Shown here piece by piece: positions 16,916 to 63,981 of a stretch of 64,000 nucleotides of DNA. Every line of letters starts with the position of its first letter. Position 1 is the stretch's first letter. The stretch is from Eledone cirrhosa. Taxonomy: Eukaryota. The notes beneath the pieces were generated by a model. That model was not told the origin of the DNA and searched no databases. It worked only from the letters and a program-made list of their open reading frames with translations. The translations under genes and the position numbers were made by a program. The DNA lies in contig OZ024740.1 of assembly GCA_964016885.1 (NCBI GenBank), forward strand, positions 283,898,001 to 283,962,000, written 5' to 3'.

Positions 16916-19900
16916 AAAAGAAGAAAAGATCAGACTACATATTAGTAATTTTTTCTGGTTGAAGATGTGCCAGAAGTTCCCAGTTGAGGAAAACCAAGGA
17001 AGACTTGGGTAGAAGTGATGAGAGCTGATCTCAAATCGCTGAAGCTCACCAAGAAGACAAAGGAATACAAGAGGTGGAAGGGAGCTGTGCTGGAAAAGTC
17101 CTGTCCAACCCATGCAAGCTTAGAAAACAGCATTTAAAAGGATGATGATATGATGTTTGGCGTTAATCTGTAATTTATGTATCTTCAATTTTTTTCTTTT
17201 GTTTAGAATTTCAAGATTAGTATTACTCTACAAATGCCATCAGATATATATATATATATACACACGCACATACATACATATATATATATCTTCAAAATAG
17301 GACAAAGACAATGGAAAAAACAGTGGAAAGATCACCTCAGTTAACTTCTGGACGTCATCTCAGTTAACTTCTGGAAGTCACTATGGTTTTGGTGCATTAA
17401 GGTTGACACTGTTCATTCCAGTGCACACTGGGATATAACAAAAGACAAGTTATGACTTTAATCAAATTACACAAATATAGAGTGTATAAGGGCTTAGTCA
17501 AAGGAGAAAATATATAGAAAGGAGGGAAGTAATAAAACAAGAGAATAATAAGGACTGTAGTCCCACACGCAGACAAAGAAGAAAGACACTGAGGTGTAGA
17601 AAAGGTAATATATATATATATCAGAAAGGGTGTGGTAAAATACCAGATGGACTATAACCCACCAGAGTACTCAATTGGGGTAGTAGAGTGGGTAATATGA
17701 AAAGATTCAGGATCCCGACGGCTGAGCTCCAGCCGTTTCGACAGCTAGCCATTAGGGTTCTGATTTTTCATATATATATATATATATATGTATATATATT
17801 TATAAATATGTATATATATATGTATATATATTTATAAATATGTATATATATATATATATGTGTATATATATATTTATATATATATATATTACTTTTATAA
17901 ATATAATTATGAGTTTGATTAAATACAAGAATATAAATACTGATTGATCTCTGTAAAAATGTACATCACCTGATTGTCATTGTTTCCCATGCAAACCAGA
18001 TTGGTAGCAATAAGCCTTAGTTTCAATTAATCTTATTGATGAATTGACTTTTATCTTCATTCTTCACCACCCACTGGAACTGTAATATTTTTCCAATTGG
18101 CTAAACCTAATTTTTTTTTTTTTAATCTAAAAGCTACTATTAACTCTTAACAATTGGTATGGACTACATGAAATAATAGTAGCGAGATGTTCTTGAAGAA
18201 AAGCACAAAACCACACTATCACTGCATTACATGAAAAATTCAATGCTTTACTTTGATATTGCACACTTTCACAATGATCTGCCCACTGGTAAAGATACTT
18301 TTAGCATTTTAGTTAACCCGTTTTAAGACATTTTCTGCTAAATCATTGCATGTAATTAACAGCAATACTTTTTGGCATTGCCTCACAGCCAAAGAGATGT
18401 TAACGGATTCCTTATTGATGCTCAGTCTCTTCACTTTGATATGTAAGAGACTTAAAGAATACTTGAGAAATACTCAGCGTTACCCTGGAAATAAAGCACT
18501 AAGTTGATGGCTAATTTGTTGAATGAGAATCATGGTAATTTTGCCTGAATTTATCTTATTAGTTTATATTATTTTGTGCATTTCTACATGCCATTTCAGT
18601 TGCAGTAGAAATGTGAGCCAGAGGTTAGCGCGTGTCTGTCAGTGACTTCATGCCAATCAGACGAGTGATTGTTCTTCTGGATATGGTGTAGGATGTGTGT
18701 AGCAGCATCACCGTCCCAGATGTGGGAGCACTAGTCCATTGTGAGTTTTACCCCCTTGCTAGCTAGGAAAGCGGACATTAAAACGATGATGATGATTATT
18801 TTTCTGACTCTGAAGAAAAGGGCGAATCTGTTAGGTGCAATTCTAGCTATGATTAGGACATGTGGTTAACCTTTGGAAGAGTGAGTCATTTTCTTCCTGA
18901 GCAATACCTGTTAATCTACTATAAAAGGAAATAATGCATGCACACACACACATATATATATGCAAAAGGCAAACAAATAACAAAGCAAAAGACTCAGTAC
19001 AATGAGGAAATATATTAATTTTTCTTCATTATACTGTAATACTGTGTCGTTTGCTTTATTATTTCTGTTTGCCTCTTGCATACATATATATATGTGTATG
19101 TGTATGATTTTCCTTTTATTGTAGATTAGCAGTGGTAACTGACGTTGCTCAGGGAAAAACATGAATAAGAATGAGGTATAAAAATGTTTATTCATGTGTG
19201 ACACACGTTTCGTGATCGGCCAGCTCAAGGTACAATGAGTAACGATCATGCTTGATCTGATAACTCTCTCTCTGTCTTATATATATATATATATATACAC
19301 ACACACATAAAGTAAGCAGGCACGAATTCTCAAGGTTGCATCATATACAAACTTTATTCACATATGAAAATACAATATTGATTAAACCGCCTGTAACTAT
19401 CGTTACACACCTACCTACTATTTATATGATAACTGTCACTTCTTTACAGAAGACGCCCATCTCTTCAATAAATTCTCTATTATAAATCACCGCCAACTGC
19501 AGGCTAGTTTGATGACTGAACAGGCTTTGTTTAGATCACCTTTTCTAGACCCTACCCATGTAGTATGGGTGAGCAGTGCGTTCTCAAAAAGGGCTGCTCA
19601 GATACTCAAGACTCCGTCAAAGCATGTTGATGTTCAGGTTAACAGTGCAGTGACATTAGGGTTAAGACTTGAGCTGCTCACGTATGAGTCTGCACACATT
19701 GCCACTCCACCACCACTGTGGGACTTGTGAAGAAATATAGATGGCAATGTTACATGCTTGTGCTATAGACATAGCACCCACTCCTTCCTTGCAGCTATGT
19801 GTCCAGTGACAAGCCAAAGCAAGATAACAGGACAGCTACGAGGATCGCATGTGTTATTGTCAAGGAGTTGAACTTCTCCAGTGGGTGCAGCCATACTAAT

Positions 19901-21179
19901 CATGCTTGGCCAATTGCAGGTTGGTGAGGCTATTTAACCCATAGTTGGAGTGGATGGCTGTTGACTCTGTGAAGTTCATTCATCTTTTGATAGCTTGTTT
20001 TTGTACTGCTGGGTTTCCACTTACTCTCTTCGCCAGACCAGGGTCTGGTGGAGAAGTTGGTTTAGTCACTGACCACCTGAGCATGAAACGGGTTGTACTG
20101 GGCTACATGGTACCAGCAGCAGGTAGAGACAATAATATATATGACAATAATATATATAATATATATGAGTATTATTGACGGATGGGAAAAAAAAGTACTC
20201 AATACCGAAGTAGAGTTTAAATATTCATTTAATATGGGCAAGCAGTGAGCCTTGTTACTCTGGAGTTTCACCTATGCATTCGCAGGGTGCAGAACTTGAA
20301 AGCTGAAACTGCTTGGCACTGCCGTCGGGACTTTACATATCTCTATACCCACTCTGCATCTCCCCATGCATTGAGTATTCCCATTATTAGTGGTCTCTTT
20401 GGTCTCAGCATTGCTGACTCTTTTTCTCTCTCTTTCTCTCTCAAATGGCCACGTAGATTCTTTTCCGACAAATCCCTAATTTCCCTCGGAACCCCCGATA
20501 ATAGGTGTGAAATTCAAAATATAAGGACTAATAAATCAAGGTAACTAATAAAACCAAGGTAACTTGATCTCTGGTTTTCGTTTCTTTTTACATTTCTCTT
20601 CCTCTTCATACTGCCATCTGATTTTCTTACCCGGGATTTATCCATCTGCATTGTAAAGGCTTCCAAATTTACCATTTTCTATATATAATATTGAAATATA
20701 TTCCTAACCCTTTGGCAACGAACAATTTCCATGCATACACACTCACAAAATGGTAAATTTTAAAAACTAAGATAACGAAAGGTTACTTGGGCTCGCTCAT
20801 GTACATTCTGTGTACTCACGGTTCCAAATAATAGGTCGTCACCATTGAATTTTTTAAAGACCAGAATTAGTCGAGACCCCAACCCATCCTATTTATTTTA
20901 TAACGTATGGGATTTCTAGTAATGTACTTTTTTTGTCATGTATAATGTTTTTTAATGTATAAAGAAAATTAATTATCGCAGGAATGCTACCACTTTAAAT
21001 AAAATTTCGCTGGAGATAGATTAGTAAAATTATATAAGCAGAGAAATGGGGTGGAAAAAATCTGAAAAATTTATAAGCGTGGAGGGACATTTATTCAAGA
21101 CCTGAGAGTACGTGTTAGAGTATGGACGTCTTTAAAGTTACGTTGAATTGTTTTCCTTTGTTCACACTCTTCTGTTAAT

Positions 21180-25650: not shown

Positions 25651-26587
25651 CAAGGTGGTATCAAAACGTTCCCAAACTAGTTATGTTTAAAGAAAAACTA
25701 ATATATTTACCTAAGTTTTAACATCATCTCCTTCAAAATACTCACCTTTCGCAACAATACGCTGGTCCCAGCATTCCTGCCACTTTTGGAATCTGGCCTG
25801 AATTCTCGATGCACAATACTGCAGTTGTCGAAAAAAGACAACGAGCATGCTCTTGATTGAGCTGCGGCTCTGTCGTGCCTTCTTCGGTTGTGGAGATGAA
25901 GGGCTTTTCCACTGTGTTGACTGCTGCTTTGTCTCGGGGTCATACCCGTAGACCCAACTCTTGTCACCGGAGATAATCCCCAAATGAAGAATGGGTCATC
26001 AGCACCACGCTGACAGAGATCTTGACAGACTTCGATGCGATGTTCTTTCTGCTCAGTGGTCAGTAGGTGGGGCACAAACTTGGCAGCGACATGCCGCATG
26101 TTTAATTCAGACATTAGGATTGCTTGCACAGACATATACGACAGACCAACAACATTAGCAATATGGTTGATTGTCCTCCGACGATTCTCATGCACAAGCT
26201 GATTAATTTTCTCCACATTTCTAGGAGTGTCGCTTGTCATCTTCCAGGGATGTTCTTTTGCTTTCGAAGCACCCATGTCATTTGAAACACTGCGTACAAC
26301 CCATTGCCGAAGTATGTTCAATATCTCTGTAGCAGACTTCCCAAGTTGGATGCAAAATTTCATGTTGGCTCTTTATTCCAACTTCCTGTTCATGACAAAT
26401 TCGCAGACTACAGCATTCACGTGATCACAAACACACAAATTTCACAACTTGCAAAGTGAACACAGTAATGTAACTTGGCACACTGGTGCATGAAGGTCAC
26501 TGCTAGCTCTCACTGAGCACGCAACCATGTGTTGCCATCTTTTGGCGCACTACAGAACTAGTCCGGAAACTTTTTGATACCACCTCG
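25651..26587 (-). mobile_element. Mariner (DD34D-type) element, internally deleted
   Basis: TIR-like ends CAAGGTGGTATCAAAA / TTTTTGATACCACCTCG. Motifs MKFCIQLGKSATE, KFVPHLLT, GDKSWVYGYDPETKQQS and C-terminal FQKWQECWDQRIVAKGEYFEGD. Catalytic middle missing. Confidence 0.88.
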
Positions 26588-27116
26588 GTTGCGTTGGTAT
26601 GGACATGTGATGCATATGAAGGATGACAGCTGCATAAAAAGGTGCAGAGCACTAGAAGTCATTGGAAACCGCGGAGTGAGGAGACCCAAGAAGACCTGGG
26701 ATGAGGTGATAAAAGCCGACCTTACTCAATTACACCTCTCAAAGGCGATGACACACGACCGTGACCTCTGGCGTCACGCAGTAATACAGAGTACCCGATC
26801 TCCCATGGGTACAAGCTGAAGCATATAGACAATATGCTCCCACACCCTCCCACTGCAAAGTGGTCGTGGAGGTGCCACGGCAAAAAAGCACCCAGCCCAC
26901 ACTGTAAAGTGGACGTGTAGGCACCACGGAAAAAAGCACCCAGCACTCACTGTAAATGAGGTTGGTGTTAGGAAGTGTATCCAGCTGTAGAAATCAAGCC
27001 AAAATCAGTTCCTCTATGAGCAAGGCATGGTCAGCCGACCAGACACTGCCCACAACAGGACAACCCATCTAACCCATGCTAGCATGGAAGAACGGACGTA
27101 AAACAGTGATGATGAT
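26586..27116 (+). mobile_element. 5'-truncated RTE LINE, same family as 58803-62608
   Basis: Near-identical to 62067-62608 (RLRWYGHVM...RPKKTW, 3' UTR, GAT tail). Fused directly to the mariner TIR with CG(G) microhomology. Confidence 0.9.
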
Positions 27117-27210
27117 ATATATGTAGAAGGTGAGTAATATTGTAGAACAATAAAACTATGCATATATCAGATAAGTAGCACTCAACAGTTGGTAAAACTG
27201 GAGTATATAT

Positions 27211-27520
27211 TAAAGAATAAATTAAAAGATGGTTAAAAAGTTCCATATATTTTACTATGCGCATTTTGAAAACATCATCCTGGGACAAAAATTGTGTTCT
27301 CATCAGATAAAATAAGGTGACATGATATGAGGCCTAAAAACACTTGTCAACAAGAAAGTGTAGACTGGACACTTTCTTGGTGACAAGTATTTTTAGGCCT
27401 CATATGTTACCTTATTTTATCTGATGAGAACACAATTTTTGTCCCAGGATTATGTTGTTTTCGAAATGCGCATAATAAAATATATGAAACTTTTTTAACC
27501 ATCTTTTAATTTCTTCTTTA
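27211..27520. mobile_element. About 310-bp palindrome, inverted Penelope-like pseudo-LTR pair
   Basis: Arms of about 150 bp fold about AAGAAAGTGT-agactgg-ACACTTTCTT, each arm contains the hammerhead fold, and the ends abut (TA)n. Confidence 0.7.
27413..27482 (+). ncRNA. Type I hammerhead ribozyme motif (Penelope-type, minimal palindromic stem III)
   Basis: TATTTTAT-CTGATGA-G...C-GAAA-TGCGCA-TA-ATAAAATA: perfect 8-bp stem I, intact core, self-complementary ATGCGCAT helix III, predicted cleavage after 27474. Stem II is imperfect. Confidence 0.8.
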
Positions 27521-27539
27521 TATATATATATATATACAA

Positions 27540-27995
27540 ATGTCACTGGACCGAGACCTTTGGCGGTACTCAGTAACAGAGAAGACCCGCCTTACCTAAA
27601 TATATAGTAAAACCTACTCCAGCCAGTAGGCATCTCTAACAAAATACACCCCGTCCCACCACCACCACCCCCACCCCATCCACACCACCCCGTTCTATGT
27701 AAAGTTATGTTGGTGCCGCGCCATCGAGGCCGAAACAAATGAGATCGTGTAGGTGTCACGACAAAAAAACACACAGTCCACGCTGTAATGTGGCCGTGTA
27801 GGCAACACGGTAAAAACCTCCCAGACCCACACTGTAAATGTGGTTGGTGTTAGGAAGGGCATCCAACTGTAGAAAACCTGCCAGACAGTCCTATGCGAGC
27901 AAGACAATCACTCTTGCCTCAAGTGGGACTACCCCCGTCCAAACCCATGCAAGCGTGGAACACGGACGTTAAACGTTGATGATGATGATGATGAT
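27540..27995 (+). mobile_element. RTE ORF end plus 3' UTR (young family)
   Basis: Encodes DRDLWRYSVTEKTRLT* followed by the same UTR as 9597-9999 and a (GAT)n tail. Confidence 0.85.
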
Positions 27996-28001
27996 GACAT
28001 A

Positions 28002-28892
28002 CAGGGTGCGGACGATATTTGTTCACAATTTTCAACTGCTAATTTTATGCAAATTTTTTTTACTTCCGTTGTCACTCTTGTCTCCCTAAAAACAGTGACT
28101 ATATTTCCATTATTTATTTTCAGAATAATTGATTATTAATAATTTTGAACCTCCAAATTTGTGGAAGAGACATGGAGTTCTTCTTGGAATCCGCGCGAGG
28201 AGAACAAATAAGACCAGAAGATCAACTCCCAGAACAACAGATGGCTCGCTGTCTCATCCAAAGACGTGCCCAGAGTCATGCAGACAAAGTTTCCAGCGAC
28301 AACATTGGTCTTAGGTGTCGTCAGCAGTCAAGTTGACGTCATGCCACTTCACTGCTTCCCTGAGGGCCTCAAAATGAACACCGATGGCTACATCCGCGTT
28401 CTGAGTAAGGTAGTAAAGCCCTGGATCGACCAGGTAGCTGCAGGTAGGCCGTACGTGTGGCAGCAAGACTCAGCGCCCTGCCATACCAGTCAAAAGACCC
28501 AAGCCTGGCTGTCAGAGAACTTCGTCGACCACACTTCACCTGACATCTGGCCTCCCAGCTCGCCTGACTGCAAACCCTCGACTTCTTTGTATGGGGCGCA
28601 GTGGAATGAGACACCAACAGATCTAGCTGCAATACGAAAGATGATCTGAAGGCCAGAATCACAAGTGCCTTTAGGGGCCTAAGTCGGGGGACAGTGACGA
28701 AGGCCTGTAGCCGGTTCCGAGGCCGCCTTGAGGCCGTCATCAAAGCCAATGACGGGTTTATTGAGTGAGATCGAAAGAACAAGTCATGAAGACAAACTGA
28801 CCCAAATTTGATAAATATATCTTAAAAAATAAAACTACAGTGTTATTTTTTCCCAGACAGTAATCTTGCGAACAAATACCGTCCGCACCCTG
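28002..28892 (+). mobile_element. Tc1/mariner DD37D (maT-type) transposon, internally deleted copy 2
   Basis: Same TIRs and TA flanks as 1092-2308. QQD-SAPCH...WPPSSPDCKP(L)D gives 37 residues between D2 and D3 after repairing a 1-nt frameshift. About 0.4 kb deleted near 28213. Confidence 0.92.
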
Positions 28893-42956: not shown

Positions 42957-43149
42957 GAGAAAGGAGTACTCAATACCGAAGTAGAGTTTTAATATTCATT
43001 TTATTAAGGCTAAATAGTGAGTCTTGTTACTCTGGAGTTTCGCCTGTTTATCACAGGGTCATCAAACAGTTCTTGTCTGATGACCCTGTGATAAACAGGC
43101 GAAGCTCCAGAGTAACAAGACTCATTATTTAGCCTTAATAAAATTAACA
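42957..43149. mobile_element. Inverted Penelope-like pseudo-LTR pair (family 2)
   Basis: Arms of about 67 bp (42998-43064 / 43078-43144) with hammerheads. Related copies at about 20190-20290 (-) and 43887-43952 (-). Confidence 0.7.
43071..43120 (+). ncRNA. Type I hammerhead ribozyme motif, variant core (GAAG)
   Basis: TCTTGT-CTGATGA-cCCTG tgataaa CAGGc-GAAG-CTCcaGAG-TA-ACAAGA: 6-bp stem I, 4-bp stem II, short stem III. The mirror copy on - (43022-43068) has canonical GAAA but TTGATGA. Confidence 0.72.
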
Positions 43150-43365: not shown

Positions 43366-43377
43366 ATATATATATAT

Positions 43378-43834
43378 GTGTGGGATGCTTAAAGCATCCA
43401 TATGCAGTAAGCCATTTGAGCATTCGATGCTCTTACAGAGCAGAGTATAATATCACATAAGAAACGGAGAATCAGTGGTGCGACGAATTAAAATTTATTA
43501 GACATATTACAATCCTTTCTCTGGCGACCAGCTCGAGGGGCGATTGATGTGATGATCGAACCTGACTCTGAAATCGCAAGATCCTCAGATACGTTTCCAA
43601 ATTTGGAAACTCTGCTTCGAAAAGCCGAGACGTATCTGAGGATCTTGCAATTTCAGAGTCAGGTTCGATCGTGCCTCGAGCTGGTCGCCAGAGAAACGAT
43701 TGTAATATGTCTAATAAATTTTAATTCGTCGCACCACTGATTCTCCGTTTCTTATGTGATATTGTACTCTGCTCTGTAAGAGCATCGAGTGCTCAAATGG
43801 CCTAGCGCATACCGATGCTTTAAGCATCCCACAC
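43378..43834. mobile_element. About 457-bp palindrome, inverted Penelope-like pseudo-LTR pair (family 3)
   Basis: GTGTGGGATGCTTAAAGCATC...GATGCTTTAAGCATCCCACAC with near-identical arms of about 210 bp, a hammerhead in each arm, and (TA)n on both sides. Confidence 0.72.
43629..43711 (+). ncRNA. Type I hammerhead ribozyme motif with extended stem II
   Basis: GACGTAT-CTGAGGA-TCTTGC...GCCAGA-GAAA-CGATTG-TA-ATATGTC: 7-bp stem I (one G.U), intact core, near-palindromic helix III, followed by AATAAA. Mirror copy on - at about 43501-43595. Confidence 0.8.
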
Positions 43835-43835
43835 C

Positions 43836-43887
<52 letters not shown>

Positions 43888-44363
43888 GTTAATTTTATTA
43901 AGGCTAAATAATGAGTCTTGTTACTCTGGAGCTTCACCTGTTTATCACAGGGCAAGGGGTCAGAGGATTGGGATTATAAGCCATTGTCAATGGTGTAGGA
44001 CCAAAATATTGAAGAAATATGGCCAAATATTTTCTTACTAATAACAGTTACTGTTGATATATATTTTTCATTGAACATGTGATGATCAAAGACAACTAAA
44101 TGAACATGAACAGTAACCAAAACTCATCTTTATAAATTAATGTCACTATGTATGGTAGAAGTCAGTTGTATGATGCAATCATTGTCCATGTTGCATGGCC
44201 AGCTAAGATGTTGCATCACCAAGTGTTTTAAAGTAGTATAATGCAATAATGTTTTCATATTTAATCACCCTAATCATTTACTCTTCATAAATCAAATCTT
44301 ACAGTCTTTCAGAACTATCCATTATTTATCGGCGCAAGTTTTACTATTACAACCTGAGTCATC

Positions 44364-46504: not shown

Positions 46505-48312
46505 CCCTGTTTCTCCCTCAGTTCATCCTAGCTCTCCCTCATTTCTTTCCAGTCAATGCATGTCCTCTGCAGTCATTACTCATGTTTCTCTACCATGCAG
46601 TATTGCACTTTGCACACGGGCATCATACAGTTGTCCTTTTCTATGCAAGGAAAAAGCTTTTGTTGTCAACAGTGGTAGTAGCTCTCTAAACTTTTTTTCA
46701 TCCTATCTTTATTCTGACTATTATGCTCTCAGAGCACCCGCCTCTGCTGCTAATTAAGTCACCTAGATAGAAGCTATCAACCATTTCTGTGAGTCCTTCA
46801 TGTGATTGGAAAAGGTTTGTATCACTGACCTCTTCCCCTTGATTACCCCTGTGCATCTTTTACATACAAAGTCTTCCCTTCCTATTAGTCTACCTAATAT
46901 CCCACTACATCTCTTGTGTATCCACAATTTACATTGTGTACATCATATAGAGTTTATGCCTACTCCTTTTCTACATATTGAGCAGGGCCACTCCCCTGAG
47001 GGAATCCGGGCCTATCTTCTTTCCTACTTACTAGCACTTTAGTTTACGGTAAGTTTACGCTCAGACTTTTTTGATTTAAAATATTGTTTCCATAGTCGGA
47101 ACTTATTATCTAGTTCTTTTATGGATTCAGCTATAAGAATCAGATCATCCGTATAGAGAATTTCCCATGGACAGCCAGTCTTAAACTCCTCTGTTATAGC
47201 CTGGAGAACTATAATGAAAAGCAGTGGGCTAAGAACCGAACTAATGAACTCCTAACTGCACCTTGCATTTCTCACTAAACTCATTTCCTACACTCTCTTT
47301 ACTGACAGCTCCTCTGTACATGGTTTGCACTGCTCTCACAAGTCATCCTTCTGCACCTAATTTCCTTAAGGACAACCATACATATAACAGATCAAGGTAT
47401 TCTGTCAAAGGCATTTTCTAGATCAACAAGTTTAAAATAGCAGCTTATTTTTGGCTAGGAACTTTTCTTGAAGTTGCCTTACTAAAAAGAGAGCATCTAT
47501 ATTATTTTTACCAGGCATGAAACCAAACTGCATCTTGTCTAATTAGCTATGCTATAATTAGCTATGCTATAATTCTTCCTGTCACTTTCATAACTTGGTC
47601 CATTAGTTTTATTCCTCTACAGTTGCTCCTTTCACGAGCGTCACCTTTACCCTTTTAGCAATATATGATTGTACTGCAGTGCCAGTCATTGGGTAGGACT
47701 CTGTCATGTATTACCTGATTAACTATACCGATTACTAGTTTGACTCCTACTTCTGATGCTTTTAGCATCTCAGCAACTATTTCTGAAGGTCCTGCAGTTT
47801 TACCATTCTTCATCCCCTTGATTGTCTTTTTTACCCAATAACTGTCAACTTCAATAGCTGGTCCTTCTGTTGGGTAAGTTAGAGGTAGTCACTCCCCCTT
47901 CCGTTCATTCTCTACATTCATCAGCCTCTTATAGTAACATTTCCAGGCCTCTTTTTTTTTTTTTTTTTTTTTTTTTTATTATTTTTATTATGAGTGTACC
48001 AATGTTATTTCCAACACACATTTCCCCAACAACATCCCAATTCACACTGTCACACTGCCTTGGAATGCGGAACACTTCATATCTCTGATCCTCACATCTC
48101 AAGGCTTTGGCAAACTTTGTTTTTTCAGCCTCTCTCTAAACAGTGTATACTTGTTGAACTAGCTTCTTTCTTAGCCACCTGGTACCAGTCTTTGCTATCC
48201 CCATTTTTCCAGTCTTTCCACGCCTGTCTCTTGGCTTTAATGGCTCTATCCACTGTGCTATTCCACCACTAGGTTACCCTCTTTCTGGCTGGTGCTTTAC
48301 TCCAGTCACAAG
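46505..48312 (-). mobile_element. Degraded RTE LINE (RT region), antisense to host gene
   Basis: The reverse strand shows MQFGFMPG, DLENAFDR, LYTDDL, WPCSICRKGVG and CVQSAILHG remnants. Confidence 0.87.
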
Positions 48313-49253: not shown

Positions 49254-49326
49254 AGGTGTCTGAAGGAAGAGAAACCTTAACTGAAGGAAGGCATGAGTTC
49301 AATTTTGCTTTTGATCTCCCAATGGG
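49254..49326 (+). CDS. ARRDC3: Alpha-arrestin coding exon 2 (73 nt)
   Basis: Long poly-T tract plus TTTCAG acceptor ending 49253. Reads (E)VSEGRETLTEGRHEFNFAFDLPM(G), the G.HEF.F.F.LP arrestin motif. Donor GTAAAT at 49327. Phases 1/2 fit exons 1 and 3. Confidence 0.92.
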
Positions 49327-58802: not shown

Positions 58803-61800
58803 CAAAGTCATCTACTCCCTTCGAAATCCTAACATTTCGCCTAGGTACTCATATCGGTTTATTTTGCCCTGAGATGCTATAGGCCATGATGGCTACATAT
58901 CTCACAATTTCCCTCCCGCCCACCATAGCCTATTCGACCAATCAAACCTCAGCATGTCCCCCCCCCCTCCCACTCATTACCAACCCCAACAAACTCTGCC
59001 ATTACTACTACTACCTACCTCTCTCCTCACCCGTCCCAGCCCCAATAAACCCTGCCATTATTACCACCACCACTGTTCTTCTAGCCCTGAATTCTCCTAC
59101 AGTTATGTATGGATGAGCTGAGAATAAATGGAGCAACCATGAATTAATAAATGAATATGAATCCACGAGCTACCAAGCACCTATGCGAAGCTTCAATTCA
59201 GAGACAGGAAGCATACACACACCCCTGCAAAAATCTACCCTTTCCCACAAATGTTGCCAAATGCCCAAATCTCCGAGTTGGAACCATCAAAGTAAGCACA
59301 ATGAAAGGAAGAGCAGGAGAAATCATAGAGATGCTAGAGCGAAAGGAAATTGATGTATGCTGTGTGCAAGAGACTAGATGGAGAGGAGAGTCTGCTAGAG
59401 TCCTTGTAGGAAAAAGTCAGTGCTACAAATTTTTCTGGGTGGGAAATGACGATGAGATGGGTGGTGTAGGTATCCTACTAGCTGACAAGTGGGTAGATAA
59501 GGTGATCTCAGTGAACAGGGTGAATGCAAGAATCATTACACTCAGACTAGTCATGAATAAAACAATTACCACAGTAATATCAGCTTACGCACCCCAATCG
59601 GGTTTGCCAGACGAACTTAAGGATAGGTTTTACGAGTCCCTAATGCACACTACTGCTCTTACAAACGACAATGTCTTCCTAATCATTGCAGGAGATTTTA
59701 ACGGACATGTAGGTAAACGCCGTGACGGCTTCTATAGAGTCCATGGAGGTCATGGGGTTGGCACAAGAAATGAAGAAGGCATCAGGCTTCTAGAATTCTG
59801 CGATGCCAATGACATGTCGATATGTAACACAAACTTCAAAAAACCCGACAACCATCTGATCACCTATAGATGAGGGGAGCATTCTAGTCAGATAGATTTT
59901 ATCCTCATCAGAGGACGTGACAGATGGATGGTCGTAAACACAAAAGCCTTCCCTAGTGAGGAATGTACCTCCCAACATAGCTTAGTCAGCAACCACACGG
60001 TCAGAACTAGACGAACTTGGAAACAGAAGCCAATCTGGAGAAGAAAGATCTGGGAGCTGAAAGACCCCTCAGCCAGTAACAGATTTAAAGATTTTTACTC
60101 AATGCCTATGACAGTAAAGAAGAACAGATAGAGGCATTCAATGTAGAAGAGCACTGGGAGTTCCTAAAAAATAACTTGCTAAAGGCGACGGATGAGATCT
60201 GTGGCTGGAGTAAGACCACAGGCAGGAGGAGAGTGACATGGTGGTGGAACAATAAGGTAGATGAGGCAGTTAAAGCCAAGAGACAGGCATGGAAAGAATG
60301 GAAGAACATGGGAAGCAGGGTACATTACATAGAGGCTAGGAGGGAAGCTAGGCGACAAGTATACTTAGCTAGGAGGGAAGCAGAGGATAGAAAATTCAAG
60401 CATGTTTTGCAACGTGAGGACCAGAAACAGGAGGTGTTCAAGATTGCGAGGCAGTGTGTCAGAGAGAATTGTGATGTCATTGGAGAGAAGTGTATCTAGA
60501 ATGATAAAGGTGAGCTTGCCCTCACAAGTGCTGAGAAGAAAGATGCGTGGAAGAGCCATTATAATAGATTACTAATTGAGGAGAATGCATGGGAAGAAGA
60601 GACCCTACCCCAAGTAGACTATATAGAGGGGCCAGCAGTACAAGTCAGCAGCAGCGTAGTAAGTAAGGCAATCAAAGATATAAAGACGGGGAAGGCAACC
60701 GGTCCATCGGGTATAGCTGCCGAGATGCTGAAGGCATCTGGGTTGGTAGGTCACACCATAACCACAGGTATTGTTAACCAGGTAATACTAGGTGTCATAC
60801 CAAAGGATTGGTGCAGTAGCATCATTGTCAACTGCTACAAAGGTAAAGGTGATGCACTCGATAGAGGAAACTATAGAGGTATAAAGCTGATGGACCAGGT
60901 CATGAAAGTAACAGAAAGAGTTATAGCACAGTTGATTAGGGACCAGGTGAAACTAGATGTGAGATGCAATTTGGGTTTGTGCCAGGAAGAGGCACCACTG
61001 ATGCCCTCTTCCTTGTCAGGCAGTTACAGGAAAAGTACCTAGCTAAAAGTAAGTCGCTCTACCTGGCATTTGTCGATCTCGAGAAAGCCTTTGACAGAGT
61101 TCCCTGTGCTATAATCTGGTGGGCTCTTAGAAAACTAGGAGTAGATGAATGGCTTGTGAAAGCTGTACAAGCCATGTATAGGGGAGCAGTCAGCAAAGTT
61201 AGGATTAGCAATGACTATAGCGAGGAATTTAGCGTACAGGTTGGTGTCCACCAGGACTCTGTTCTTAGCCCTCTCCTGTTCATCATAGTTCTGCAGGCAA
61301 TAACGGAGGAGTTTAAGACCGGATGCCCATGGGAACTCCTGTATGCAGCTGACCTCGCTCTTATAGCTGAATCTATGGTAGAACTAGAGAAGAAATTCCA
61401 AACTTGGAAGCAGGGACTAGAAAGAAAGGGTCTCAAAGTCAACCTGACAAAGACTAAGGTCCTTGTAAGTAGACGAGAAAACAGAACCCAGATCCCCTCA
61501 GGGAAATGGCCTTGCTCAGTATGTAGGAAAGATGTAGGTAGGAACTCCATTCTCTGACCCAAATGCAAACAATGGGTAGACAAGAGATGTAGCGGGATCT
61601 CAGGAAGCTTAACTAAGAATGTAGGCTTCACATGTAGCAGCTATGCTGGGACAGCAAGCAGCAAACAGCCACAGGAAACAAGTACCACCAAACTGTGGGA
61701 GGGCTCTGTAGAAACAGTAGACAGCTTCTGCTACCTAGGTGACCGAATTAGAAGCGGAGGTGGGTGTTCAGAAAGTACAATAACTAGGGTAAGAACGGGA

Positions 61801-62608
61801 TGGAAGAAGTTCAAGGAGCTACTGCTAGCTGCAAAAGGCTTTTCCCTCAAAATGAAAGGCAGACTGTATGATGTATGTATACGAACAGCAGTGTTACATG
61901 GTAGTGAGACCTGGGCGCTGTCTGTGGAAGACTTGTGTAGATTAGAAAGAAACAAAGCCTGCATGCTTCGATGGATGTGTAATAGTATATACGCGAACGG
62001 CAAAGCATAAATGAATTGAGAGAGAGACTGAGCATAAGAGGAATCAAATGCTGTGTGCAGGAGAGGCGGTTGCATTGGTATGGACATGTGATGCGTATGA
62101 AGGATGACAGCTGCATAAAAAGGTGCAGAGCACTAGAAGTCGATGGAAACCGCGGAGTGGGGAGACCCAAGAAGACCTGGCATGAGGTGATAAAAGCCGA
62201 CATTACCCAATTACACCTCTCAAAGTCGATGACACGACCGTGCCCTCTGGCGACATGCAGTAATACAGAAGACACCGACACCCATGGGTACAAGCCGAAG
62301 CTGAAGTATATAGACAATATGCCCTCACACCCTCCCATTGCAAAGTGGTCATGGAGGTGCCACAGCAAAAAAAGCACCCAGCCCACACTGTAAAGTGGAC
62401 ATGTAGGCGCCACGGAAAAAAGCACCCAGCACTCACTGTAAATGAGGTTGGTGTTAGGAAGGGCATCCAGCTGTAGAAATCAAGCCAGAATCAGTTCCTG
62501 TATGAGCAAGACAAGGTCAGCCAACCGGACACTACTCACAACAGGACAACCCGTTTAACCCATGCTAGCATGGAAGAACGGACGTAAAACGGTGATGATG
62601 ATGATGAT
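58803..62608 (+). mobile_element. Near full-length RTE-clade LINE (APE endonuclease + RT + PHD-like finger), inactivated
   Basis: IDVCCVQETRW, SAYAPQ, AGDFNGHVG (APE); YRGIKL, QFGFVPGRGTTDA, FVDLEKAFDRV, GVHQDSVLSP, LLYAADL (RT, YADD mutated); RLHWYGHVMR and GRPKKTW C-terminus; 3' UTR ending in (GAT)n. Several stops and frameshifts. Confidence 0.95.
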
Positions 62609-62921
62609 TACTCTATATTTACTATTATATTTTTATGGTAAAAGCTTTACTTCACATAGTATCGAATTTAAAAGATTTTTATATTATTTATTTTGAGAAC
62701 TGTAACTTAACATCAGTATGGGTGGCCAGTTACAGCCAGTTTGATTAGAAAGAGATGAGAGAATTCTGGCCTGATTCTGCCAGTTTAAATGCTAAAGGGT
62801 TAAATAGAATTTCATTAGAAGTTTATAATCTGAATTTATGTATATATTTCATGATGATGCTGTTAAATTTTAAATGATAATGTTTCTAGTTTTAAATATT
62901 AAAATATATATTTATATATAA

Positions 62922-63338
62922 CCAAAATTAAATTAAGGGTGTCATGTCCGAGAGACGTGCGCCATATCCACTGTAGAATATGCTCAAAGATTCCAATGAA
63001 TAAATCCGAGCATTTTATATCAACTAGAAATTGCTTAACATATATATATATCTAAAATAAACATATGAAACAATCACAGCGAATAATTTGTAAAAAAAAC
63101 TAGCAGCACGTGTTGCATTTTTTAAAAATACACACATCGTACCTAGCTGTGTGTGCTTACACACTTTTACAAATTATTCCCTGTGATTGTTTCATATGTT
63201 TATTTTAGATATATATATATGTCAATCAATTTCTAGTTGATATAAAATGCTCGGATCTATTCATTGGAATCTTAGAGCATATTCAACAGTTGATATGGCG
63301 CATGTCTCTCGGACATGACACCCTTAATTTAATTTTGG
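62922..63338. repeat. Fold-back inverted repeat with arms of about 170 bp
   Basis: CCAAAATTAAATTAAGGGTGTCATGTCCGAGAGAC... / ...GTCTCTCGGACATGACACCCTTAATTTAATTTTGG, flanked by TA runs. Confidence 0.88.
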
Positions 63339-63833
63339 ATATATATATATGGCCCCTTAATTGTAGAGCTAACTCAGTTGAAAGGACTCGGCTGCTATTT
63401 CTAGTTGTCGATAATCCTATTCACGCCACTGGGATGAAGCTGGTATGATGTGTGTATTTTAAAAAAATGCAACACGTGCTGCTGCTAGTCATTCACAGAT
63501 TTGCATTTGATGTGTAAACACAGATAGTTAAATCTTCTCCCTTGTTGAAAATCCGGGATTTAGCTACTGTGGTTTACCGATCGATTGATGGTGAAATATA
63601 TTTCTTTAATGAAATATATACAAGGAAGATGAATCATTTTAAAAGATATCTATATTTAAAGTTCTAGTTAAACTTTAATTAGTTACCTACTTAGCTGTGT
63701 GTGCTTACACACTTTTACAAATTATTCCCTGTGATAGTTTCATATGTTTATTTTAGATATATATATATGTCAATCAATTTCTAGTTGATATATATATATA
63801 ACATGATTAATCTATATTTTATTTATATTGCAG

Positions 63834-63981
63834 AGGAATTGCTACATCATTTGAAGGCAAACATGGCAGCATCCGATATTGGCTAAAAGCAGAAATGGAC
63901 AAACCTTGGGCTTTCAATCATAAAACCAAAAAAGCATTTACTGTAATATCTCCAATTGATATAAACAAACCTGAATATCAG
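63834..63981 (+). CDS. ARRDC3: Alpha-arrestin coding exon 3 (148 nt)
   Basis: TTGCAG acceptor ending 63833. Reads GIATSFEGKHGSIRYWLKAEMDKPWAFNHKTKKAFTVISPIDINKPEYQ, with the hallmark SFEGKHGSIRY. Donor GTAGAT at 63982. Not in the ORF track. The gene continues beyond the window. Confidence 0.95.

Follow-up and report, generated by a model that had tools for sequence, protein, structure and literature searches.

The stretch of Eledone cirrhosa DNA analysed here, a window of 64,000 nucleotides, is repeat-rich eukaryote DNA and carries on its plus strand the coding exons of an arrestin-domain gene. These exons match consecutive parts of Pfam Arrestin_N (positions 1-79, 82-103 and 106-148), have GT/AG ends and form a single open frame of 480 nt. 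Within the long intron that follows the first exon lies an inverted repeat (27204-27528) with two arms of ~160 nt that are ~90% alike, show 8 mismatches and 8 gap columns in an alignment of 163, and enclose a spacer of 7 nt. Each arm contains a hammerhead motif, intact in the right arm and broken in the left one. Judged from the exon model, the plus strand is probably the host sense strand, and since the palindrome lies inside this intron the intact motif would be on the sense strand. The features are as follows:

5500-5758, 49254-49326 and 63834-63981, plus strand: coding exons of the host arrestin-domain gene (Pfam Arrestin_N)
5759-49253, plus strand: intron of 43.5 kb after the first exon, enclosing the palindrome (exon model)
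27168-27203, minus strand: putative tail, an extension outside the left arm only (loose ends of public sequencing runs X4 and X7 compared by eye)
27204-27361, minus strand: left arm, an inverted 5'-truncated copy of the same repeat family as the right arm, head-to-head with it (arm alignment)
27248-27314, minus strand: mirror hammerhead, broken (sequence, no Rfam match)
27369-27528, plus strand: right arm, a 5'-truncated repeat-family copy with a (TA)n run at its end (arm alignment)
27413-27482, plus strand: type I hammerhead, intact (sequence, descriptor, Rfam alignment, fold)
27466-27473, plus strand: self-complementary helix III, ATGCGCAT (sequence, fold)
42995-43147, both strands: a third hammerhead palindrome, smaller and from a different family, in the same intron
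43366-43848, both strands: second head-to-head hammerhead palindrome with arms of ~230 nt, in the same intron

Hammerhead motifs and palindromes of the intron

The right arm has the elements of a type I hammerhead (CUGANGA, GAAA, UH and three helices, open at helix I). Its stem I of 8 bp is formed by TATTTTAT (27413-27420) and ATAAAATA (27475-27482), and the core consists of CTGATGA (27421-27427) and CGAAA (27462-27466, with GAAA at 27463-27466). Helix II (27428-27462) is closed by a G10.1-C11.1 pair and contains one C/U mismatch; H17 is A27474, 3' of which the cut is predicted. The left-arm motif fails the type I core at G12, the general base of the hammerhead (PMC6155905, excerpt): its minus strand reads CAAAA, i.e. 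G12 is replaced by A (T at plus-strand position 27267). In addition, its helix II is short by 3 nt and a G.U pair stands at the base of stem I. A palindrome with two mirrored hammerheads, a perfect stem I and CTGATGA...CGAAA in the right arm, CAAAA in the left arm and a perfectly palindromic helix III had all been described in the sequence-only reading, and all these motifs are present.

Rfam Hammerhead_1 (RF00163) aligns to 27415-27480 with 22.4 bits (E 0.0012, search of 101 bases), which falls below the gathering cut-off of 34 bits, with all 45 model positions covered and the core in register. Helix II with its loop comprises 31 nt in the right arm versus 10 nt in the model, and the sub-cut-off score lowers confidence in the Rfam label alone. 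A hammerhead descriptor with a stem I of at least 8 bp matched 0.003 times per dinucleotide-shuffled window, and never in 300 shuffles once helix III had to be palindromic as well. On sequence grounds, the hammerhead motif of the right arm is genuine. A search of the left arm gave no Hammerhead_1 match, and a scan of the whole window (E<=1) gave no hammerhead; all it matched were microsatellites and palindromes, by models of the hairpin type. Matches to C/D snoRNAs in both arms (E 0.14-0.9) were produced by UGAUGA and were rejected.

TA runs flank both arm ends, the left one of which may be the element's own, and within the TA run at the palindrome a target-site duplication is not readable. 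The left arm continues beyond the extent of the right one. In one X4 contig, the loose end behind the right arm equals the sequence outside the left arm in 29 of 30 letters (27181-27210), and the loose ends of 1382 X7 reads match that sequence partially, from which it follows that the left arm bears a one-sided extension. At least 23 nt of it (27181-27203) are family sequence; the tail would measure 36 nt if it reaches the next TA run. Read depth over the spacer (27362-27368) indicates that the family sequence probably extends through it.

An open frame of 84 codons (27082-27333, minus strand) runs through left arm, tail and hammerhead, has an ATG within the core of the latter and may represent the beginning of the parent (Penelope) ORF. 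Several common family variants fall on its third codon positions. The frame is closed after 25 codons in the right arm and likewise in the family, judging by the absence of left-out letters among the family's variable places. Its 63-residue part from the ATG yielded one candidate among longer proteins and no relative at E<=0.1; two weak protein matches of the frame (E 6e-5 and 3e-4) involve several stretches of long or repetitive proteins and were rejected as spurious.

The same intron holds two further hammerhead palindromes. At 43366-43848, flanked by TA runs at both ends, both cores are intact (CTGAGGA...GAAA), helix II is long and helix III has ceased to be a perfect palindrome. At 42995-43147 both cores are altered, the minus arm by a change of C3 to T and the plus arm by a G at 15.1; single partial arms of this family are found at 20228-20288 and 43890-43955, and the palindrome has a one-sided extension of ~30 nt in common with the copy at 20228. 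The three palindromes share no related sequence (no cross-match with nhmmer) and have arms of unequal length. Intact cores are found on the sense strand in two of the three and on the antisense strand in one of the three, so that there is no consistent strand bias of intact cores in the intron. A same-strand partner copy of the right arm is absent from the 64 kb.

Other repeats in the window include a palindrome with arms of 186 nt and a partial direct copy (62910-63350 and 63690-63800) with TA runs and the same layout, in which no hammerhead core was found, and two further short inverted repeats (2648-2758 and 18908-19132) that also lack one. A repeat of at least 300 nt with 99% identity (9597-9896 and 27584-27883), a recent insertion, begins 55 nt to the right of the palindrome. 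A fragmented LINE-like element (59151-62400, plus strand) comprises an AP endonuclease and a reverse transcriptase (RT), and sequence from its 3' part is found again at 805-973 and 26586-26754. Since it follows an AP-type endonuclease, the long RT at 60940 is regarded as LINE-like. A further RT fragment lies at 47042-47251 on the minus strand (Pfam RVT_1, E 2e-5). Tc1/mariner-type transposase remnants occur at 1339-2100, 25710-26372 and 28212-28646, with 95% likeness between the stretches 1358-1688 and 28210-28540.

Repeat family and decay of the arms

Public runs X1, X4, X6 and X7, four of the nine listed, were aligned to 27356-27532 (177 nt) at 80% likeness. Matches to the right arm were found in 1333 of 16.3 million contigs of X1, 22 contigs of X4, 2 contigs of X6 and 2736 of 12.5 million reads of X7; run depth does not equal copy number, and the right arm is part of a many-copy repeat. 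Exact-pattern searches of metagenome and viral contigs gave no match in either. In the literature this specific family was not found, and subscription papers, Repbase/Dfam or supplements may already list it. An octopus repeat annotation mentions, in its excerpted text, Penelope-like elements and not hammerheads (PMC13282606).

The family conserves the ribozyme core. In X1, 13 places carry at least 5% other letters, of which the 12 listed all lie outside the 35 positions of core, stem I and helix III, while the one unlisted place is an A>T change and no G>A place occurs at all. Likewise, every change in X4 lies outside these 35 positions, the 5' half being represented by two contigs only, and among the places listed for X7 one of the 35 varies. 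Over all runs, the listed places amount to 1/35 variable positions in core, stem I and helix III versus 16/35 in helix II and its loop; this contrast is taken from listed places, and were the 10 unlisted ones, by count the weaker places of X7, all in the core, it would disappear (p=0.33; two of these 10 are G>A places and could include G12). In X1 alone, 3 of the 35 helix II places reach 5%. Helix II shows two-sided changes (G>A at 27428 together with C>T at 27462, and T>A at 27436 together with G>T at 27454), the phase of which was inferred from overlapping loose-end strings, and loose ends also reveal a subfamily with A at 10.1. Stems I and III are nearly invariant across the family, hence there is no covariation in them. 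The 3' flank varies like helix II does, while G12 is kept in the family. At position 11.1, T accounts for 89% of the X1 depth and no matching G>A stands beside it, which marks this T as a lineage variant. CpG decay as the main cause of the family-majority T at 27462 was rejected, the reciprocal G>A at 27463 staying below 5% in X1.

A comparison with homologues had been proposed in the sequence-only reading, and in the public runs these homologues do keep CTGATGA/GAAA and stem I. The family-wide retention of G12 implies that the motif is real and that the change of G12 in the left arm is private decay. Measured against the family majority, five changes are private to the right arm (27380, 27389, 27451, 27487 and the loss of 3 nt at 27403) and five or six to the left arm (the mirrors of 27408, 27463, 27475 and perhaps 27513, and two deletions). 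Five random changes miss the 12 core letters with a probability of 0.66 and all 35 positions with a probability of 0.26; exactly one of the two arms is struck in its core with a probability of 0.47. No special meaning of an intact core on the sense strand only is supported, since this lies within what neutral decay would give.

The loss of G12 had also been ascribed to CpG decay, and this is a fair account of the change. The window is depleted in CpG (observed/expected 0.37), and between the arms of four palindromes transitions affect 5 of 42 letters in CpG sites versus 14 of 593 elsewhere (p=0.006, in a test that includes the G12 site itself and sites chosen by CG in either arm). The change of G12 to A, private to the left arm, is therefore likely to have arisen by CpG deamination, although this is not provable for one site.

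Predicted folding and activity

The following energies are equilibrium predictions for RNA free of proteins and editing. In the segment 27405-27490 alone, stem I is predicted with a probability of ~0.25, and the full monomer hammerhead lies 4 kcal/mol above the free fold. As a monomer hairpin (2 bp with a loop of 4 nt) helix III costs +4.7 kcal/mol versus -10.5 kcal/mol for the 8-bp homoduplex, and two right-arm copies are predicted to co-fold via the 8-bp helix III. That a palindromic helix III favours a dimer, as had been suggested, thus agrees for the family ribozyme with the folding and with the published design. The mirror arm, by contrast, cannot be the dimer partner since it is antisense, and published dimers are mostly tandem same-strand copies. 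Dimer cleavage of the family ribozyme is likely according to these models, and not required, given that excerpts of PMC7229834 report that most hammerheads of invertebrate retrozymes cleave efficiently, and liken a 2-bp helix III to theirs. RNA of 27405-27490 would represent the family ribozyme and not the locus in its context.

A different structure is predicted for transcripts that read through the palindrome. Here, the hairpin of both arms reaches -200.5 kcal/mol compared with -109.8 kcal/mol under hammerhead constraint, a cost of 91 kcal/mol, and the probability of stem I falls below 1e-50. A transcript begun at the centre (27362-27528) is likewise predicted to misfold, with a stem I probability of ~5e-6. 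As the left, antisense arm is transcribed first, it would pair with the right arm while the latter emerges. The hairpin is therefore predicted to remove the ribozyme fold of the right arm, the locus giving double-stranded RNA instead of cleavage; in these models activity of the right-arm hammerhead at the locus finds no support and is unlikely.

Origin of the palindrome

Known Penelope-like insertions provide a close comparison. Excerpts of PMC8557442 describe for them an adjacent inverted 5'-truncated copy, a one-sided tail of 30-40 bp and a microsatellite bias; head-to-head is the commonest arrangement, for which self-priming has been proposed (PMC3846280, excerpt). Their pseudo-LTRs contain hammerheads with a palindromic helix III and weak, dimer-dependent cleavage, and hammerhead pairs on opposite strands 100-700 bp apart are probably truncated elements (both from excerpts of PMC4209133). 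Furthermore, AT-rich cleavage and an explanation of the tail by two initiation sites have been described, together with a hammerhead that is protein-assisted and dispensable for insertion in vitro (PMC11167929, excerpts).

The palindrome resembles endonuclease-positive Penelope-like insertion units in its truncated copies arranged head-to-head, its extension on one side (at least 23 nt, and of tail size if it reaches the next TA run), its many-copy family, a hammerhead close to the 3' end and flanks of (TA)n. Unlike full units it keeps two ends only, without an RT/GIY-YIG frame: no such Penelope frame was found at the locus or among the 194 of 482 frames scanned, an absence at the palindrome that is expected for a truncated remnant. 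With metazoan Penelope hammerheads, as portrayed in excerpts of PMC4209133 and PMC6765202, the motif shares type I, the full core, G10.1-C11.1, the palindromic helix III, the long helix II and an opposite-strand pair within 100-700 bp. It differs from them in its stem I (8 bp versus 4-5) and in that no extra letter is needed between 9 and 10.1. With its 2-bp helix III and tetraloop the right arm, for which a cut is predicted, is nearer to canonical invertebrate hammerheads. Animal non-LTR retrozymes (PMC7229834 and preprint 10.64898/2026.07.22.740005, excerpts of both) are likewise short non-coding repeats with a type I hammerhead. Unlike in retrozymes, the two copies in the window form an inverted pair and head-to-tail tandem units are absent; this locus cannot yield a doubly cut monomer or a circle.

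Several other origins were weighed. The palindrome could itself be mobile, a non-autonomous hairpin element (MITE-like or retrozyme-like) that is copied whole, and the occurrence of three hammerhead palindromes in one window, 11 X7 reads that switch strand near the centre and a parent ORF that was not found would suit this. Yet the three are unrelated and have arms of different lengths, the joints in the strand-switching reads lead to two places (27404 and 27435), depth drops steeply toward the centre with family sequence passing one arm only, the other family also exists as single partial arms, and the tandem array of retrozymes is missing, so that we consider this origin unlikely. We give very little credence to the repeat being a SINE or retrozyme monomer that carries a hammerhead, is unrelated to Penelope and was duplicated in inverse orientation by DNA repair. 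Although type I hammerheads are known in animal retrozymes (PMC7229834, excerpt) and a link to an ORF is absent, repair leaves the one-sided tail and the TA flanks unexplained, which recur in an unrelated family, and excerpts of the preprint (10.64898/2026.07.22.740005) derive tandem hammerhead repeats and animal retrozymes from Penelope pseudo-LTRs anyway. Practically no credence is given to a chance motif in AT-rich DNA or a fold-back artefact of the assembly: stem I is indeed AT-rich, the Rfam score is below gathering and a weak descriptor match elsewhere (13101, minus strand) looks like chance, but the shuffle rate of 0.003 per window and the family-wide conserved core argue against the former, while the arms match the family majority at different sites, which is unexpected for a fold-back.

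Selection could alternatively have kept the sense hammerhead to cut the arrestin-domain pre-mRNA, in analogy to the conserved intronic hammerheads of amniotes (PMC6155905, excerpt). The intact copy is indeed on the host sense strand, none of the five private changes of the right arm lies in core, stem I or helix III, and its helix II is predicted to be more stable than that of the left arm (-5.5 versus -2.5 kcal/mol). Against this, chance alone would spare the core or even all 35 positions often enough, the same intron holds one palindrome with both cores intact and one with both altered, the antisense arm is made first and would pair with the right arm letter by letter, and a same-strand partner is lacking in the 64 kb; we regard such selection as very unlikely. 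Very unlikely, too, is a reading in which the inverted copy acts as an antisense lock and so allows an intact ribozyme to reside in a host pre-mRNA. There, A-to-I editing or a helicase would open the duplex and the sense hammerhead would cut the arrestin-domain transcript, such palindromes being conditional RNA fuses in introns. In a weaker form, intact sense-strand hammerheads would survive in introns mainly inside palindromes.

The palindrome very probably consists of two copies, 5'-truncated and placed head-to-head, of a many-copy repeat that bears a type I hammerhead motif. It likely derives from one insertion of a Penelope-like retroelement into intronic (TA)n, and its intact hammerhead is predicted to be silenced by base-pairing with the mirror arm. 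The arms, the motif, the many-copy family with its conserved core, the one-sided extension and the TA flanks are observed. From these we infer that each arm corresponds to a Penelope pseudo-LTR. In the parent element the hammerhead would have cut after an AUA triplet, likely as a dimer via helix III and possibly with the help of protein. An element-encoded GIY-YIG endonuclease and reverse transcriptase would have produced a short cDNA from the end of the pseudo-LTR; by folding back or re-priming, this cDNA would have given an inverted second copy with the tail on one side only. Later, five to six private changes per arm accumulated, as shown against the family, one of them probably the CpG deamination at G12 of the left arm. 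Any transcript across the site is predicted to form a hairpin of ~155 bp, i.e. double-stranded RNA instead of cleavage.

The asymmetry between the arms is thus ordinary decay, and the feature is an ordinary one. It adds one hammerhead-bearing repeat family, and an intron with three palindromes of this kind, to a pattern that has been in print since 2013-2014, and its left arm provides a natural G12A control next to the intact right arm. If true, the reading of the inverted copy as a lock on the ribozyme would tie together transposon debris, RNA editing and intron cleavage.
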